Source: a virus (lineage: Duplodnaviria > Heunggongvirae > Uroviricota > Caudoviricetes). From it: 25,016 nucleotides of DNA. The position numbers were made by a program, and so were the translations under genes. The notes beneath the pieces were generated by a model that saw only the letters and a program-made list of their open reading frames with translations, made no database searches and had not been told where the DNA came from. Shown here one piece after another: positions 1,675 to 23,464 of this stretch. The stretch lies in IMG/VR virus record IMGVR_UViG_2675903352_000013, positions 1-25,016 of that record. One strand, 5' to 3'. Every line of letters begins with the position of its first letter. Within the stretch, counting starts at the first letter, position 1.

Positions 1675-3993
1675 TTAAATCCGAAGTGATGTAACTCTTC
1701 CGGTCGGTTTGACAATAGGGAATTGCTTAACAATAAAATAACCTCCGGCATCATTCGGGTGATCGTTGCCAGATTTTTTATCAGGCTCACCCTTATCATC
1801 CCAGACCTGTTGCTCCAGAGATTCGGCATATACCGGACAACGCTTCACATTAACTTTATAGCGACGCTCACCATTGGCATTGCAGAACATTGCATTCATT
1901 GAGTTAACGCGATCTTTTACTGGCGGATTCGAACTGTTTACAACAACGTTAAAACCAGCCTGTTTAAGCTGAGCAATATCCGTCGCACTTGCGTTATTTG
2001 ATTTTCTGGAATCCCCGGATGCATCAGGATAAATATAAATTTCCCTTACTTTCCGATAATCATTCCCGTCATATAACCAGAAGCGCTCTTTAATAATACG
2101 GATCATATCTGGTGTATCGTAAGCGTTAATGATTTCAGTTACTGCGCATGGAAGCCCAAAACGTAACACATGAACGACTCCAGCCATTTTTCCGACGTTA
2201 AAATCCATCCCGATATATATCGGCTCACCTGGCTGTTCCTCTTCTTCGCAATTATTCAGTTTTCGGTCAAACTGATGGTAAACAGTACCACTTGTCAGGT
2301 TAGTAAACTGTCCTCGAAGATAGGCTTTAATCAGCTCTGGAGGATATGACTCAAGGAGCGAGGGAATGTAATCTGCTGGCAAATTCTTTTCATTATCGAA
2401 AGTAGATGCCTGCACCAGACCATACAGTGAGGCCAGCTCTGTTTTTTCACGTACGGCTTTAACAAACTGCTCGTAGACAAATTTGAATCCTTCCGGCGTG
2501 GTTGTAACGTCAATACCGTTACGAAGTCCATCAACCTTATAACGCATACGCGCAATTATCTTGCGCCACGCTGTTCTGGCTTTTTCCTTCGGCAAAATGT
2601 CCAGTTCATCCACCAGCGCATTACCAATTTTGAAACCGACGATCGTTTGCGGCTTCTCCATCGTTCTGCAGATAGTGGTTCCACGATACTGACGTCCGTA
2701 ATAAAAATGAACTTCTTTATTTCCCTCGTTAATTTTTACATTTAGCCCCCAGTCGGCAGCAACTTCTTCAACTGTAGGATAAAAAATATCGCGAATTTGT
2801 GGATATGTAGGCGCAAAATATCCCTGATTTATACCCGGATGCTCCCAAATCCCCTTACATATGCCACCACATCCAACCCATGTTTTACCGCTATTGTGAT
2901 GAATCGTCCCATCAGCAGTTACGTAGCAGTTATTATCCAATACCTGGAGGTCATAATATGGCTCGGCCTTCTGCAACAGTGTTACACTCAATATGTTGCA
3001 GGTTTCGATTAAGGAGTTTGGTTTTGACGCCTCTTGACCGTTTAATTTGTGATTTAGCACATCCAGAACGTACCGTTTCAGAAGTTGCTTCTCTGGCAGG
3101 TTGTGACCGCAGTCATGTTTATCGTTGCATATCTCGTTATGGGTTAACGCTGAAACAACACCAGAAGCCTGTCCCTCGAGAAAGTGCGAAGGACAGAATC
3201 CTCGCTCTTGCTGATGGTCACCGTACGTCGGCAGAGATCGCGGCGGAAGTTGGTTGCACAGAAAAGCACGTTCAAAATATTCTCCGAATTCACAACGCCA
3301 ACCGGCTACCCTGTGGCGCCAGAAAGGGTGAGTTGAACCCCAGCTTTCGTGGTGGTCGAATTGTTGATCTGGATGGATATGCCGTTGTTCCAGCGCCTGC
3401 TGACCATCCATATATGCGCAGAACAGGCATGATGTTTGAACATCGTTTGATCGCTGAAAAGAAGCTGGGGCGTTATCTGCTGCCATCAGAAGTTGTTGAC
3501 CATATAGACGGGCTTCATCTGCATAACACCCCAAGTAATCTGCGAGTTTTTGATTCAAACGTGGATCACCTGCGTGCAACGATTTCGGGACGGCGGCCAA
3601 ACTGGTCAGAAGAAGGTTTTGCGAAGATGCAAATACCTTCACCGATTCGTCCAGACTATCCACAGATCGATAGCTACCGTCAGCGCAAAAAACGCGGTGA
3701 TGTCCGCTTGCTACAAATTCTCCTCGCTGCGTCACTACTCGGTATAGATTCGACACACCTTTTGGGTACGCACCACCACTTAGCGAAAGCTCAAATCGAT
3801 TATTCTCATCCGACCAAGATAAAACGCGCATTGGTCGAGTTATTTCCTGAATGGGTAGAATCCCATTCTCTGTAACCACAGGCGTACTTCCCCTCAGGCA
3901 ACCAAAACCAGCAACATAGGCTTTAAATTTATGAGGCATAGAAAGAAATCGCGCCTGAGGCACATTAAGCGTCGGAGAGATCATCTTCATCAC
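1675..3993 (-). CDS. Terminase large subunit (TerL) carrying an in-frame intein within the Walker A P-loop
   Basis: Continuous 772-aa ORF. N-extein ends KAYVAGFG and C-extein begins SGKTWVGCGG, so removing residues 32..367 restores a canonical P-loop AGFGSGKT. Downstream motifs: Walker B-like NALVDELD, and nuclease-domain acidic motifs IYIGMDFNVGK and YPDASGDS. Start overlaps the putative terS 3' end by 29 nt. Confidence 0.8.
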   Translation of the reverse strand: MMKMISPTLNVPQARFLSMPHKFKAYVAGFGCLRGSTPVVTENGILPIQEITRPMRVLSWSDENNRFELSLSGGAYPKGVSNLYRVVTQRGEFVASGHHRVFCADGSYRSVDSLDESVKVFASSQNLLLTSLAAVPKSLHAGDPRLNQKLADYLGCYADEARLYGQQLLMAADNAPASFQRSNDVQTSCLFCAYMDGQQALEQRHIHPDQQFDHHESWGSTHPFWRHRVAGWRCEFGEYFERAFLCNQLPPRSLPTYGDHQQERGFCPSHFLEGQASGVVSALTHNEICNDKHDCGHNLPEKQLLKRYVLDVLNHKLNGQEASKPNSLIETCNILSVTLLQKAEPYYDLQVLDNNCYVTADGTIHHNSGKTWVGCGGICKGIWEHPGINQGYFAPTYPQIRDIFYPTVEEVAADWGLNVKINEGNKEVHFYYGRQYRGTTICRTMEKPQTIVGFKIGNALVDELDILPKEKARTAWRKIIARMRYKVDGLRNGIDVTTTPEGFKFVYEQFVKAVREKTELASLYGLVQASTFDNEKNLPADYIPSLLESYPPELIKAYLRGQFTNLTSGTVYHQFDRKLNNCEEEEQPGEPIYIGMDFNVGKMAGVVHVLRFGLPCAVTEIINAYDTPDMIRIIKERFWLYDGNDYRKVREIYIYPDASGDSRKSNNASATDIAQLKQAGFNVVVNSSNPPVKDRVNSMNAMFCNANGERRYKVNVKRCPVYAESLEQQVWDDKGEPDKKSGNDHPNDAGGYFIVKQFPIVKPTGRVTSLRI
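2893..3900 (-). other. Intein (Hint domain) inserted in the TerL P-loop, about 336 aa
   Basis: Read directly from the minus-strand translation: block A-like CLRGSTPVVTENGILPIQEI starting with Cys (codon 3900..3898); block B-like GEFVASGHHRVF; block F/G-like YYDLQVLDNNCYVTADGTIHHN followed by +1 Ser (codon 2892..2890). No LAGLIDADG or HNH motif in this frame between the blocks. Confidence 0.7.
2958..3875 (+). CDS. HNH endonuclease (HNH_3-like motif) with two N-terminal HTH-like segments, encoded antisense within the TerL intein
   Basis: Plus-strand ORF (track 2880..3875). ATG at 2958 is preceded by GGAGG at 2946..2950 with a 7-nt spacer. Motif DGYAVVPAPADHPYMRRTGMMFEHRLIAEKKLGRYLLPSEVVDHIDGLHLHNTPSNLRVFDSNVDHL matches the classic phage HNH homing-endonuclease pattern. 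Two HTH-like repeats upstream (RTVSEVASLAGCDRSHVYRCISRYGL and RTSAEIAAEVGCTEKHVQNILRIHNA). The C-terminal ~100 aa may be non-functional read-through constrained by the opposite-strand frame. Confidence 0.6.
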   Translation: MARPSATVLHSICCRFRLRSLVLTPLDRLICDLAHPERTVSEVASLAGCDRSHVYRCISRYGLTLKQHQKPVPRESAKDRILALADGHRTSAEIAAEVGCTEKHVQNILRIHNANRLPCGARKGELNPSFRGGRIVDLDGYAVVPAPADHPYMRRTGMMFEHRLIAEKKLGRYLLPSEVVDHIDGLHLHNTPSNLRVFDSNVDHLRATISGRRPNWSEEGFAKMQIPSPIRPDYPQIDSYRQRKKRGDVRLLQILLAASLLGIDSTHLLGTHHHLAKAQIDYSHPTKIKRALVELFPEWVESHSL

Positions 3994-13377: not shown

Positions 13378-13624
13378 CGCACTCTGAGATTTTCGCTACT
13401 GTTGCTGTGGTGGTTTCTTCCGGCAGTTCTGCCTGCATTGGCTGTTCCTGCTGAACGTTGTTATCAGCCACACGCCAGGTGTACGCGCTTTTATCAACAA
13501 AACCAGCATTTTTCAGTTCCCATAGTTCGTTAAGCACTTCTTCACGACTGATATCAAGTCGCGCCGCAAGTTCTATGGATGTGGCTTTTCCCATTGCTTT
13601 CAGTGCGTCAAAAACAGTCTCCAT
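13358..13624 (-). CDS. Winged-helix DNA-binding protein, N-terminal part of a possibly split gene
   Basis: ATG at 13624..13622 with SD GGGAGA; sequence [43 protein letters not shown]. Stop TGA at 13358 lies about 20 nt from where the downstream frame opens. Confidence 0.5.
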
Positions 13625-13646
13625 TAAATTTTTCTCCCGGTAAAAA

Positions 13647-14393
13647 TCACTTCGTGATTCCTGGCTGGACGACATTCGGGCGCCAGCTTTCCCAGTTAAA
13701 ATTCACCCAGCGTCCGCCGTTCATGGTCATGCGATCCATAATCCGCTCACCGAGCAATGTTTTCATGGCCTCATAGTTCAGGTTTGTCAGCATTCCCACG
13801 CTACGCATCGACGCTGTCCGTCGATCAATAATCTGGTGCAGTACCACCTGCTCGTTTTTCGTCTCACGCTGAATGCCAATTTCATCAAGAACCAGCAGAT
13901 CCACTTCGCACAGTTCCCGCAAAAATTTTTCGCCTGACTGCCCGTCGTCATAGCTGGCGTGCAGGGCACTCATAACATCAGCCACAGTAACCACTATCAC
14001 TGTCTGGCCGTCTTTCAGCAGGCGATTTCCGATAGCCGCCGCCAGATGGTTTTTCCCGGTACCAGGTTTTCCACTGAACGCGAAATTTGTACACCCGGTC
14101 ATCAGTTCATCGGCGATGGATTTTGCCTGGCTTAACGCGTATCGCTGACCGTCGTTCTGCACCTGGTAATTCGCAAACGAGCATTTGCGGTGCAACGGCT
14201 GGATGCCAGAGCGATTCAGGATTTTTTCAACCCGCAACTGACGATTCAGGCGGTTGATCTCCTCGCAACGTTTCTGGCCTTCAGCAAGTTGCCACTCGCG
14301 CCACTCCGCAACCGTTCTGAATGGGGCGGTTACATGTGGTGGGGTCAGTCTGCGGATACGTTCCAAGACGCCTCCTGTCGCAATATTTTTCAT
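13647..14393 (-). CDS. ydaV: DnaC-like helicase loader / replication protein (YdaV-like)
   Basis: 248-aa ORF with ATG at 14393..14391; Walker [16 protein letters not shown] and IstB/DnaC-like organisation; length matches Rac YdaV as recalled. Confidence 0.8.
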
Positions 14394-14399
14394 GGTTCG

Positions 14400-15266
14400 T
14401 TACCCCCTGAAGCCTGGCGGGATCGCACTGTCCGGCAACGAGACGGTGTTAACCTGCCGAGGCAACGTCTCCGGTCGAACGCCTTTCGGCGCGAACAAGC
14501 CCTGGTATTCGTTGGCGATGCTGTGTCGAATCACCTGCTCAGGGGTAAAACCCTGCTGGCGGAATTTTTCCAGTTCCCGTATCGCCCCGTTAGCGCCCTG
14601 CTCCGTTCGAATCGGTTTTCGCAATGCCTGCCTGAACCGGACCCACTCATGCCAGAGTGTTTCCGGCAACCAATCGGGCAACTCAATAGCCTCCGGCTCG
14701 AATTTTTTAGATGCTCGTTTTTGGCGAGGGGGATTTAGGGGGAGATCAGTATTTATATCTTCCTCTTCCTCTTCCTCTGGTAACGCTTTTTGATCCGTTT
14801 GTGTAACGCTGGCAGCGTTACCTTTTCGTTTCAGTTCGCGTATTTTTGTAACCCTCTCGTTTGTAATCGCCCGTTTTTTAGAGCTTTTTCCGTTATGACG
14901 TTCAAAGTTAGGTAGAGAAAGCCCACCGTTATTTTCGACCAGCCATCCAACCTGAATTAACGCATCAGCAAAACCAGCCATAAAAGTGATGCGATCTATT
15001 GCACTTTTTGTAACGCTGCGAGCGTTACACTCTGCGTTACCGTCTATCATTTGTTGATCCGCCCATGCCCAGAAGCGAATGACTTTCCCTAATGCGGCAT
15101 CTGGATCAATATTCAGAATCTCAGCAAGCCTGAATATTTCCGGCTTATCCGGCGTAATAACCTCGAGCTTTATCCAGTTTGAAGCCATATTGTTTTCACC
15201 TTGTAACGCTGTAAGCGTTACATTTAACTGATACCGAACAAAACAGTCCGGCACGATTAATTTCAA
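14400..15266 (-). CDS. ydaU: Replication initiation protein (YdaU-like); start uncertain
   Basis: 288-aa track ORF starting at TTG 15266, abutting the ydaT stop. Alternative ATG at 15188..15186 with SD AAGGTG gives 262 aa. Acidic Glu-run linker; contains three palindromic repeats. Confidence 0.6.
   Translation of the reverse strand: MKLIVPDCFVRYQLNVTLTALQGENNMASNWIKLEVITPDKPEIFRLAEILNIDPDAALGKVIRFWAWADQQMIDGNAECNARSVTKSAIDRITFMAGFADALIQVGWLVENNGGLSLPNFERHNGKSSKKRAITNERVTKIRELKRKGNAASVTQTDQKALPEEEEEEDINTDLPLNPPRQKRASKKFEPEAIELPDWLPETLWHEWVRFRQALRKPIRTEQGANGAIRELEKFRQQGFTPEQVIRHSIANEYQGLFAPKGVRPETLPRQVNTVSLPDSAIPPGFRG
14803..14821. repeat. 19-bp perfect palindrome GTAACGCT-N3-AGCGTTAC, copy 1 (candidate iteron/origin site)
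   Basis: gtaacgct ggc agcgttac; an additional half-site GTAACGCT at 14780..14787. Confidence 0.7.
15010..15028. repeat. 19-bp perfect palindrome GTAACGCT-N3-AGCGTTAC, copy 2
   Basis: gtaacgct gcg agcgttac; extra half-site-like tgcgttac at 15033..15040. Confidence 0.7.
15203..15221. repeat. 19-bp perfect palindrome GTAACGCT-N3-AGCGTTAC, copy 3
   Basis: gtaacgct gta agcgttac; lies between the TTG and ATG candidate starts of ydaU. Confidence 0.7.
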
Positions 15267-15689
15267 TCAATGCACTACGACAGAGTCGCCGGGCGACCCG
15301 CCGCCGCTGAAATGTGCTTTACGATAAACGGCCTGGACTGCATCATCATGCGCATCAATTGCCGTACTCAACGCTTCCTGCGCCGCCAGTAATGCACGGC
15401 GTTCCAGGGTATCGAAGATGCAGAGTCGGTGACGCAGCTCGCGCGGAAGAATTGCCAGAACCGCAGGGATCAGTTTCTGAATTTTTTCCCTTTGGGCTTT
15501 CGTTTCACCTTTCAACCAACGGTGATAGATATTCTGCTGATTGTTCCAGTCCTTGCCAGGCACCAGGGGCAATTCGCCGCCCCCCTGGCGCAGATATTCT
15601 TCAGTAATTGCATTGGCAACCCATGCCTGCCCTTTTTCAGATGCCATGGCCAACAACACTGATTCGATATGCTCATGCCTGATTTTCAT
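15267..15689 (-). CDS. ydaT: YdaT-like protein (putative toxin of the Rac YdaS/YdaT pair)
   Basis: 140-aa ORF, ATG at 15689..15687 overlapping the ydaS stop (ATGA). Sequence MKIRHEHIESVL...QAWVANAITEEYLRQGGGELPLVPGKDWNNQQNIYHRWLKGETK closely matches Rac YdaT as recalled. Confidence 0.75.
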   Translation of the reverse strand: MKIRHEHIESVLLAMASEKGQAWVANAITEEYLRQGGGELPLVPGKDWNNQQNIYHRWLKGETKAQREKIQKLIPAVLAILPRELRHRLCIFDTLERRALLAAQEALSTAIDAHDDAVQAVYRKAHFSGGGSPGDSVVVH

Positions 15690-15928
15690 GAATCAACCGC
15701 TCCTATGCTGTTTTCGCTATGCTTACCGTCTGGGGGGAATACATCGTCAAGTCCACAATGAGCGCCAAGCCGATTAAGGGTAGAAACAATTTTTCTGCAC
15801 TCCTCTAGTCCAGGGGTACGAAAATTTGCTTCGTAATTTGCCAGTCGGCTTTGTATCCACCCTAACTGAACAGCGAGTTGTCTTTGAGACAGACCAAGCT
15901 GTTTTCGATATGTTGAAATTTTGTTCAT
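15686..15928 (-). CDS. ydaS: Cro/YdaS-like HTH (XRE-family) regulator
   Basis: 80-aa ORF, ATG at 15928..15926 with SD GGAGG at a 7-nt spacer; HTH segment LGLSQRQLAVQLGWIQSRLANYE; divergent from the repressor gene. Confidence 0.65.
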   Translation of the reverse strand: MNKISTYRKQLGLSQRQLAVQLGWIQSRLANYEANFRTPGLEECRKIVSTLNRLGAHCGLDDVFPPDGKHSENSIGAVDS

Positions 15929-16024
15929 TGAAAACCTCCGATGACAATTTTAAACACACATTGTGTTATACGATCAAGCTGTTTTGTGTTTTATATAAAT
16001 CACGAATCGTGATACAAGGATGCA
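15929..16024. promoter_or_regulatory. Divergent promoter/operator region between the cro-like and repressor genes
   Basis: Contains ACACA-T-TGTGT inverted repeat (15956..15966), a TTTTGTGTTTT half-site, and a 15-bp perfect palindrome ATCACGAATCGTGAT at about 15999..16013. Confidence 0.5.
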
Positions 16025-16444
16025 ATGGAAAAAGAAAACGAAAAAATTGCCGCTAGTAGGCTCAATGACAAAATTGCAATGCGTCTTAAAGAGCGCAGGC
16101 AGAAGCTCGGTTTATCTCAAGGAAAACTTGCTGAAATCTGCGGATGGACGCAATCGCGTATAGGTAACTATGAGGCGGGCAGCAGAAATGTTGGAGTGCA
16201 TGATGCTGTCGTATTGGGAAAGGCACTTGGCATATCTCCTCCTGAGCTCCTCTTTGGAGAACAGGAATCTTCTGAATTGTGGTTAAATGAATCCCAACGA
16301 AAACTTCTTGAGTTGTTTAACCAGCTACCGGGCTCAGAACAACAACGAATGATTGAGCTATTTGAAGTCCGGCTAAAAGAAATCGATGAGTATGTAGAAA
16401 AATATTTGAGAGGCAGGCTTAAAGATAATCCCCCACCGGAGTAA
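16025..16444 (+). CDS. Prophage repressor, XRE-family HTH (RacR-like position)
   Basis: 139-aa ORF, ATG at 16025 with SD AAGGA; HTH LGLSQGKLAEICGWTQSRIGNYE; no peptidase S24 domain. Confidence 0.7.
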   Translation: MEKENEKIAASRLNDKIAMRLKERRQKLGLSQGKLAEICGWTQSRIGNYEAGSRNVGVHDAVVLGKALGISPPELLFGEQESSELWLNESQRKLLELFNQLPGSEQQRMIELFEVRLKEIDEYVEKYLRGRLKDNPPPE

Positions 16445-23088: not shown

Positions 23089-23283
23089 ATGCGATATGAA
23101 AAAGTTAAGCCATGTCCGTTTTGTGGTTGTCCATCTGTAACAGTGAAAGCCATTTCAGGGTATTACCGGGCAAAATGCAACGGCTGCGAATCCCGAACTG
23201 GCTATGGTGGAAGTGAGAAAGAAGCCCTCGAAAGATGGAATAAACGAACCGCTGAAAATATTAATGGAGGCATCTATGTATAA
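23089..23283 (+). CDS. ralR: Restriction alleviation protein RalR (Lar)
   Basis: 64-aa product from the second ATG: MRYEKVKPCPFCGCPSVTVKAISGYYRAKCNGCESRTGYGGSEKEALERWNKRT..., matching Rac Lar as recalled. Confidence 0.8.
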   Translation: MRYEKVKPCPFCGCPSVTVKAISGYYRAKCNGCESRTGYGGSEKEALERWNKRTAENINGGIYV

Positions 23284-23464
23284 AATTACCGCCACAATTG
23301 AAAAGGAAGGTGGTACTCCTACTAACTGGACAAGATATTCAAAATCTAAACTAACGAAATCAGAATGCGAAAAAATGCTCTCAGGGAAAAAAGAAGCAGG
23401 CGTTTCCAGAGAGCAAAAAGTAAAACTGATGAATTTTAATTGCGAGAAACTTCAGTCCTGGTAA
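23276..23464 (+). CDS. ydaC: YdaC-like small protein
   Basis: ATG at 23276 preceded by GGAGG at a 6-nt spacer; overlaps the ralR stop; product MYKITATIEKEGGTPTNWTRYSKSKLTKSECEKMLSGKKEAG... Confidence 0.6.
   Translation: MYKITATIEKEGGTPTNWTRYSKSKLTKSECEKMLSGKKEAGVSREQKVKLMNFNCEKLQSW

Follow-up and report, generated by a model that had tools for sequence, protein, structure and literature searches.

Where does replication start in a prophage whose initiator gene is interspersed with perfect palindromes? This question is raised by a 25,016-nucleotide (nt) stretch of DNA, here called the window, which comprises positions 1 to 25,016 of the IMG/VR virus record IMGVR_UViG_2675903352_000013 (Caudoviricetes). 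The window harbors on its minus strand a gene encoding a replication initiator of 262 amino acids (aa; 14400..15188), and three copies of a 19-bp palindrome are located in or just ahead of this gene. An initial annotation, made from the window alone, had interpreted them as binding sites of a dimeric protein forming an origin within the gene as in phage lambda. Comparison with related loci supports this proposal: we consider it probable that the palindromes are the recognition sites of the initiator itself and that they form, together with additional half-sites and a polypurine/AT-rich tract, an origin of replication in or just ahead of the initiator gene.

The palindrome GTAACGCT-N3-AGCGTTAC (pattern GTAACGCTNNNAGCGTTAC) was found at 14803-14821, 15010-15028, and 15203-15221 with no mismatch at any of the three sites. 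Shuffling the window 100 times with preservation of dinucleotides gave 0.06 matches on average even with up to three mismatches allowed, confirming that three copies are far beyond chance. Of the 7-nt half-site GTAACGC, the 25-kb window contains 13 copies as compared to 2.2 expected, and 8 of the 13 fall into the segment 14780-15221. They include two single half-sites, one at 14780-14786 as originally described and one at 15034-15040, which had been placed at 15033. Arms of 8 bp, as given in the initial annotation, are perfect in the window; among relatives, the eighth arm position varies, and the conserved unit is GTAACGC-N5-GCGTTAC with a 7-nt arm and a 5-nt spacer. A repeat search of the region 14200-16100 revealed no repeat family besides the palindromes and no separate array of direct iterons.

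The three boxes were designated P1, P2, and P3. In coordinates of the initiator gene, P3 extends from -32 to -14, P2 from 161 to 179, and P1 from 368 to 386, with the extra half-sites at 149-155 and 403-409; the boxes are spaced by 192/193 and 207 nt. Box P3 (15203..15221), the perfect palindrome GTAACGCTGTAAGCGTTAC, lies between the stop codon of the preceding gene ydaT (15267) and the ATG of the initiator gene (15188), 15 nt upstream of this ATG, and the Shine-Dalgarno sequence AAGGTG begins 4 nt past its end. The start at 15188 agrees with the annotated 262-aa homologues WP_001326319.1 and ECs_1944 of strain Sakai. Since the genes are on the minus strand and the initiator starts at this ATG, P3 is non-coding; the earlier assignment of the palindromes to coding sequence holds for the other two, which cover codons 54-60 and 123-129. 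Box P2 (15010..15040), corresponding to site 1 of the family, consists of the palindrome at 15010-15028 and the phased half-site at 15034-15040. Its coding strand reads GTAACGC-AGAGT-GTAACGC-TCGCA-GCGTTAC (initiator nt 149-179) and encodes the peptide G-N-A-E-C-N-A-R-S-V-T in an N-domain loop predicted with low confidence (predicted local distance difference test score <50). Box P1 (14803..14821), site 2 of the family, is the perfect palindrome GTAACGCTGGCAGCGTTAC at initiator nt 368-386, where the N-domain ends and a disordered linker starts. The extra half-site at 14780..14786, GCGTTAC(C) on the coding strand, follows 23 nt past the P1 arm and directly precedes the polypurine tract. Additionally, a simple scan scored P1 and an adjoining T-run (CTTTTCGTTT; 14803-14830, plus strand) as resembling an intrinsic terminator antisense to the initiator gene; this site could stop antisense transcription or be a coincidence.

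The origin proposal implied that related prophages share the palindromes, and this was found to be the case. Exactly three perfect GTAACGC-N5-GCGTTAC sites were present in 81 of 84 close relatives (95-99% protein identity), and the remaining three showed one mismatch in one site. When the window was aligned with 57 unique relatives, giving 58 distinct sequences, the 7-nt arms proved invariant but for singleton changes, and a center of 3-5 nt was variable. Both in-gene sites were also found in 79 of 83 unique distant loci at a distance of 189-243 nt (mode 207). Of 71 unique environmental viral contigs, 70 carried site 1 at the corresponding position of the gene, and all flanks of these contigs together contained a single comparable match outside the range -100..+480. 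Distant carriers with the same two in-gene positions include genomes of Pantoea, Pectobacterium, and Coralloluteibacterium, the Planctomycetota Stieleria and Roseiconus, and several metagenome-assembled genomes; carriers among phages are Enterobacter phage BUCT554, Escherichia coli phage TL-2011b, and a Klebsiella phage. Phages CP2 of Xanthomonas and PAN70 of Pseudomonas possess degenerate copies. Box P3 is shared by the Rac-like clade of enterobacteria and by Pantoea, and just one of the 83 distant loci contains it. Furthermore, Stieleria magnilauensis (loci L008 and L009) harbors two initiator copies with identical boxes 44 kb apart on one chromosome, which indicates either a pair of related prophages or a duplication, well beyond the Proteobacteria.

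The codons within the boxes were then compared among 81 unique N-domains with a pairwise aa identity of 44-100% (median 69%). At site 1, the arm codons were fixed to Gly GGT (79 of 80), Asn AAC (80 of 81), Ser AGC (76 of 76), and Val GTT (81 of 81). Other Gly and Val columns of equal conservation showed a third-position entropy of 1.6-1.9 bits, and GTT was used at other Val columns in just 5-30 of about 71-74 sequences. Two reading frames are used at site 2: it is read in 66 loci as xGT-AAC-GCx..., giving N-A-x-S-V-T (frame 1), and in 13 loci as GTA-ACG-Cxx...GCG-TTA-C, giving V-T-x-x-A-L (frame 0). The peptide loop at site 1 accepts a 4-residue insertion in the enterobacterial clade. To judge from these codons, the conserved core of the boxes is under purifying selection at the DNA level. 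An explanation at the protein level is disfavored because synonymous sites are frozen, site 2 is used in two frames, and P3 is non-coding.

Which protein goes with the boxes was examined by comparison with the Rac prophage of E. coli K-12, which has kept YdaT (95% identity), the helicase loader YdaV (96%), and the C-domain of the initiator (80-83%). Its initiator N-domain is unrelated, and no GTAACGC palindromes were found in K-12 Rac. Alignment of the window with K-12 Rac by blastn revealed homology at 13600-14761 (90%) and 15269-15695 (93%) and nothing in between; this cassette without DNA homology (14762..15268) contains the polypurine tract, P1, the N-domain coding sequence, P2, and P3. 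A set of 95 distant loci was obtained from Pantoea and Pectobacterium, from phages of Xanthomonas, Pseudomonas, and Ralstonia, from Planctomycetota, and from metagenomic viruses. They have only the N-domain in common with the window; in the fetched flanks, no homologue of YdaT or of the InitC type and just three weak matches to cI/Cro were detected, and nearly all of these loci keep the boxes. Among the 84 close relatives, 45 carry a different cI/Cro. The exception is phage epsilon15, which has an N-domain of 32% identity and lacks GTAACGC but carries GTCCGC boxes; the second of its two half-site clusters is followed by GCGGACC and (GAGAA)n. Epsilon15 has the same layout with a box sequence that has co-varied with the N-domain. 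Because the boxes co-occur only with the N-domain, as seen in K-12 Rac, the distant loci, and epsilon15, the most likely reader of the boxes is the initiator's own N-domain.

Two observations concern the boxes of these other systems. In epsilon15 (locus L020), half-sites GTCCGC/GCGGAC are clustered with an 11-nt phase at gene nt 54-105 and 333-373 (2554-2605 and 2833-2873 of the locus). The linker of K-12 ydaU contains at least five (A/G)TGTTCAAAC-like repeats, clustered at 2995-3071 of the K-12 Rac locus L001; within 2940-3071, the repeats are followed by an AT- and purine-rich stretch and then by the same CCCCCCCTAAATCCCCCCC motif. Rac was reported to have an active origin, oriJ (PMC3945230), and the linker repeats of ydaU are probably its boxes.

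The promoter-distal box is adjacent to an unusual tract. On the coding strand, the window contains a 21-nt run of pure purine, AGAGGAAGAGGAAGAGGAAGA (14778 to 14758), followed by TATAAATA (14757-14750) and GATC; the segment 14745-14778 shows the lowest GC content (0.33) and the highest purine content (0.87) of all 30-nt windows in the gene. The consensus among relatives is AGAGAAGAGAAGAGAAGAGAAGA, of the (GAGAA)n type. Within a stretch of about 2.8 kb, no purine run is longer than the one at this position in 67 of 84 unique loci, and in most of the 84 the half-site GCGTTACC(T) stands right before it. In each gene, the GC content of the tract is among the lowest of all segments, and this holds for the GC-rich phages of Xanthomonas and Pseudomonas as well; the tract is also present in epsilon15 despite the changed boxes. 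Its translation varies between relatives (EEEEEE, EKRREEK, REEK); because it is translated differently in different relatives, these data indicate a DNA-level feature. The polypurine/AT-rich segment (14745..14778, minus strand) is a candidate DNA-unwinding element; the repeat could serve as unwinding element, form H-DNA, or provide a single-stranded DNA target for the C-domain. Past the tract, a conserved C-tract motif, CCCCCTAAATCCCCC (14728..14742, minus strand), encodes P-L-N-P-P with the rare proline codon CCC, and here the homology to ydaU of K-12 Rac resumes. It could represent a PPxPP motif at the protein level. In PAN70 and locus L012, a complementary G-run was observed behind the C-tract.

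The full-length initiator matched PHROG 2509 ("replication initiation protein") with an E-value of 2e-89; its C-terminal part also matched PHROG 678 ("replication initiation O-like"), and a marginal match was obtained with PHROG 4880 ("replisome organizer", E-value 0.007). Searching Pfam with the whole protein gave no match at E≤0.01 and hence none to the N-terminal Phage_rep_O, and no NCBIfam family was found for the N-domain. The gene had been termed ydaU-like, which is correct for the C-terminal 124 residues: in BLASTP, residues 139-262 align with K-12 YdaU at 80% identity, and the N-terminal 138 residues are unrelated. The N-domains of the two proteins belong to different PHROGs, and a DUF1376-type N-domain is absent from the window protein. 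An AlphaFold2 model predicts an N-domain of residues 11-96 approximately (helices 16-25, 29-48, 61-68, and 73-80; β-hairpin 84-91), a disordered acidic linker (about 97-160), and a C-domain of three helices (about 176-225). As modeled, the N-domain shows the helix-turn-helix followed by a β-hairpin wing that characterizes winged-helix proteins; no sequence match and no significant fold match to RepA or RepE was obtained. The protein ends with a DnaT-like tail, ...PDSAIPPGFRG. Homology to DnaT over whole domains is absent, and the likeness is confined to the last 20-34 residues (...VSxPDxxIPPGFRG), scoring 16 bits in NCBIfam against a cutoff of 201 and E-values of 0.04-0.06 against PDB 2ru8/6aep.

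Many E. coli relatives carry an in-frame insertion of 114 aa in the initiator linker, right behind EEEEEEDINTDL (locus L003, about 2909-3285; proteins P0013 and P0048 of 376-378 aa). The insertion is located between the polypurine/AT tract and the C-tract and has no Pfam match; its sequence (..GGRIDIVVTD..GIELD..) hints at a small domain of the nuclease type, which may be a mobile insertion within the putative origin.

Taken together, two lines of evidence favor the origin reading: the boxes, with arms under selection at the DNA level, occur only with the initiator N-domain, and the promoter-distal box abuts the polypurine/AT-rich tract of the linker. We assume the following sequence of events. 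Dimers of the N-domain would bind each GTAACGC-N5-GCGTTAC box, with half-site centers 12 bp apart, that is, about one helical turn. The extra half-sites, phased by 11-12 nt (23 nt in the linker of the window), may recruit more subunits, and dimers on boxes about 200 bp apart might associate and loop or wrap the DNA between them, a step that is speculative. The polypurine/AT tract (14745-14778), located downstream of P1 and its half-site, would thereby be stressed and melt, by analogy with the iterons and the AT-rich region of lambda. As suggested by domain homology and gene order, the C-domain with its DnaT-like tail and the DnaC-type YdaV would then load the host DnaB onto the opened DNA. In the enterobacterial clade, binding to P3 might additionally dampen read-through transcription into the initiator's own gene, although this is again speculative. 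Exchange of the N-domain together with boxes and polypurine tract is what would be expected for an origin-specificity module.

This module appears to be active in vivo because prophage Sp10 of E. coli O157:H7 Sakai, which has the same initiator and boxes, replicates. Its initiator ECs_1944 is 95% identical, it encodes a DnaC-type loader, and it carries the same boxes, exactly three in the 49 kb examined. Excision, replication, and packaging of Sp10 and its transfer to K-12 were described in a study that left the origin unmapped (PMC2669165). Furthermore, two circular phage-like "plasmids" were found in PLSDB, E. coli pE16EC1016-8 (L182, 52 kb) and a 41-kb replicon of Pusillimonas sp. T7-7 (L183). 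Both carry the initiator, both boxes, and the polypurine tract, and MOB-suite assigned the Pusillimonas replicon to rep_cluster_1580.

Several points weigh against an origin at this position. Neither binding data nor a mapped origin turned up for this initiator family in the literature searched, and publications on oriJ/Rac, YdaU, DUF1376 and iterons, the Eru replication regions of Stx phages, the origins of epsilon15 and phiV10, DnaT-like initiators, and the motif itself yielded no description of the boxes. The boxes are dispersed at 189-243 bp, unlike the tandem iteron arrays of lambda and plasmids, and the distances between them do not correspond to a fixed number of helical turns. The polypurine tract and the C-tract could partly reflect selection for an acidic or proline-rich linker peptide. 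Finally, inverted repeats bound by Rep dimers in iteron plasmids are typically autoregulatory operators and not the iterons of the origin.

This last point leads to the main rival explanation, according to which the boxes are autoregulatory operators or roadblocks that limit expression of the initiator and ydaV, with the origin located elsewhere or restricted to the linker tract. The position of P3 between ydaT and the ribosome-binding site of the initiator fits such a role, as does the spread of the boxes along the transcription unit without clustering; moreover, Rep dimers on inverted repeats act as operators in the RepE, RepA, and pi plasmids. We nevertheless regard it as unlikely that autoregulation is the sole function. 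P3, the box best placed for autoregulation, is the least conserved, whereas the in-gene boxes are near-universal and box 2 adjoins the polypurine/AT tract in most loci; this distribution argues for an origin rather than an operator alone. A simple scan detected no sigma-70-like promoter near P3, and the N-domain and boxes are swapped with the polypurine tract as one cassette. Operator and origin roles of the boxes are not mutually exclusive. A different regulatory reading takes the palindromes as operators for the CII-like YdaT, the cI-like repressor, or a Cro-like protein; the first two of these had been offered initially as the alternative to an origin. The sites are indeed located just downstream of the immunity region, with P3 directly following ydaT. 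However, the YdaT of K-12 Rac occurs without such palindromes in spite of its 95% identity, the 45 close relatives with different cI/Cro still have all three boxes, the distant loci, with no YdaT homologue and just three weak cI/Cro matches in the fetched flanks, nearly all keep them, and the cI-cro intergenic region (15929-16024) contains no copy. This candidate was rejected as scarcely credible, as the boxes track the initiator N-domain and not YdaT, cI, or Cro.

The palindromes could also act as hairpins, either as mRNA stem-loops affecting stability or translation or as single-stranded or cruciform signals for priming or helicase loading. Each of them folds into a stem of 8-9 bp with a 3-nt loop (-7.6 to -9.5 kcal/mol, z-scores of -3.3 to -5.8), and 14803-14821 with its T-run resembles a terminator on the antisense strand. 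However, the arm sequence is invariant across homologues of 44% identity without compensatory changes, GCGTTAG in many loci breaks the outer pair uncompensated, and isolated, helically phased half-sites accompany the palindromes. The direct and inverted GTCCGC repeats of epsilon15 would not give the same hairpin, and no Rfam family matched at the palindromes. We therefore judge a hairpin function improbable, and the RNA version was rejected on account of the invariant arms, the lack of compensatory changes, and the lone phased half-sites; cruciform extrusion as part of origin function stays compatible with the data. Even less probable is the view that the repeats are a by-product of a peptide motif, G-N-A-x-S-V-T, or module-boundary sequences promoting recombination of the N-domain cassette. 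Both in-gene boxes of the window do encode N-A-x-S-V-T in the same frame, and P3 and P1 roughly flank the exchanged cassette. Synonymous sites are, however, frozen only inside the arms, site 2 uses another frame in the 13 loci mentioned, P3 is non-coding, and the site-1 peptide lies in a low-confidence loop tolerating four additional residues; a peptide by-product was rejected because the codon and frame data contradict it. As to recombination, the cassette borders at 14761/2 and 15268/9 do not coincide with the palindromes, a 19-bp sequence offers little length for homologous exchange, and conservation across phyla would be left unexplained by it. Recognition sites of an initiator within its origin thus remain the preferred interpretation of the boxes.

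The genes surrounding the boxes are arranged as in Rac. A cI-like helix-turn-helix gene (16025-16444) is located on the plus strand; the minus strand carries a cro-like helix-turn-helix gene (15686-15928), ydaT (15267-15689; Pfam YdaT_toxin), the initiator gene, and, directly downstream, ydaV (13647..14393), which encodes a DnaC/IstB-type AAA+ helicase loader (Pfam IstB_IS21, 6e-20; Bac_DnaA, 1e-8). All replication genes are thus on the minus strand. A simple scan of 14300-15900 detected one sigma-70-like promoter in the cro region and none elsewhere, and the initiator gene appears to be transcribed by read-through from the cro-ydaT operon. DnaA boxes with at most one mismatch were not found in 14300-15400; lambda needs no DnaA box, and this result was counted as neutral toward an origin at the boxes. 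At 23282-23460 (minus strand), the window contains a full-length match (209 bits) to the Rfam small RNA RalA (RF02694), the antitoxin of the RalR/RalA system in Rac-type prophages. In relatives, genes of the sieB, kilR, and recE type neighbor the locus. By this RNA and these neighbors, the prophage of the window is classified as Rac-type.

The locus is common. Of 5426 complete E. coli genomes, 1628 gave a megablast hit with the 1.5-kb ydaT-initiator-ydaV region, and 677 reached a coverage of at least 80%. A concrete candidate origin is provided for a large initiator family without a Pfam model, whose members occur in Sp10 of O157:H7 Sakai, in Uetakeviruses of the epsilon15/TL-2011b type, and in phages of Xanthomonas, Pseudomonas, and Ralstonia. 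The signature of boxes and polypurine tract may be used for the annotation of origins, for predicting incompatibility and cross-talk between the replicons of co-resident prophages, and for the construction of new vectors. The locus is also a natural example of a coding sequence that contains, and is constrained by, a DNA signal probably read by the encoded protein. More tentatively, GTAACGC-N5-GCGTTAC together with (GAGAA)n may constitute a self-contained and portable cassette in which the gene is its own origin. The DNA signal would then fix rare codons and dictate the G-N-A-x-S-V-T loop in the very domain that recognizes it, and opening would occur by bridging of boxes about 200 bp apart, looping of the N-domain DNA, and melting of the tract. 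We regard this wider proposal as possible but doubtful. If true, the cassette would be common to temperate phages of Enterobacteria, Pseudomonas, and Xanthomonas and to elements of Planctomycetota, its mechanism would be distinct from the tandem-iteron O-some, and replication initiation might be coupled to transcription and translation of the initiator.

The closest parallel in layout is lambda, whose gene O contains iterons and an AT-rich tract in its middle and whose O protein binds in dimeric form (PMC7466680). As in the lambda ori/O system, including the Stx phages P27 and 933W, the putative origin of the window lies in the initiator gene and consists of dyad boxes. An AT-rich, purine-asymmetric tract adjoins them in the linker between a DNA-binding N-domain and a loader-interacting C-domain, the helicase-loader gene follows next, and the N-domain is exchanged along with the boxes as a unit of specificity. 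In contrast, lambda has 4-6 tandem iterons about 20 bp apart, as compared to 2-3 boxes at 190-240 bp. The tandem array in the linker is absent from the window, where only P1 and one half-site are found there; instead, one box lies in the middle of the sequence coding for the DNA-binding domain and one upstream of the gene. Furthermore, the loader is of the DnaC/IstB type and not lambda P, the N-domain has no Pfam match to the O family, and the candidate for unwinding is a polypurine repeat, (GAGAA)n or (GAGGAA)n. K-12 Rac shares with the window the gene order cI-like, cro-like, ydaT, initiator, and ydaV; its initiator differs by a YdaU/DUF1376-type N-domain without similarity in BLASTP or PHROG and by different linker repeats.

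Homologous N-domains (32-70% identity) are found in epsilon15 (Uetakevirus), TL-2011b, BUCT554, Xanthomonas CP2, and Pseudomonas PAN70. Like the window, this group has its boxes in two clusters within the gene, with the same polypurine tract behind them; in epsilon15, the half-sites GTCCGC/GCGGAC form arrays that are phased by 11 nt and separated by 279 nt. Unlike the window, the upstream box is missing, and most members have other C-terminal domains and neighbors. The annotation tables retrieved for these related phage records, epsilon15 included, may omit origin features and list no origin in the region. The iteron plasmids encode winged-helix initiators (RepE of F, RepA of P1 and pSC101, pi of R6K) whose dimers bind inverted repeats of half-iterons. 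An inverted repeat over the rep promoter mediates autorepression, and monomers bind tandem direct iterons at the origin; the window differs by the lack of a tandem direct array and, in a simple scan, of a promoter at the boxes. Initiators also bind repeated boxes inside their own genes in SPP1 (G38P/oriL) and in lactococcal and other phage rep genes, and proteins and box sequences of SPP1 G38P and lactococcal rep are unrelated to those described here. In view of these systems, an origin inside the initiator gene is expected in principle; the dispersed layout, the frozen codons, the switch of frame, and the invariance of the boxes across phyla are noteworthy.

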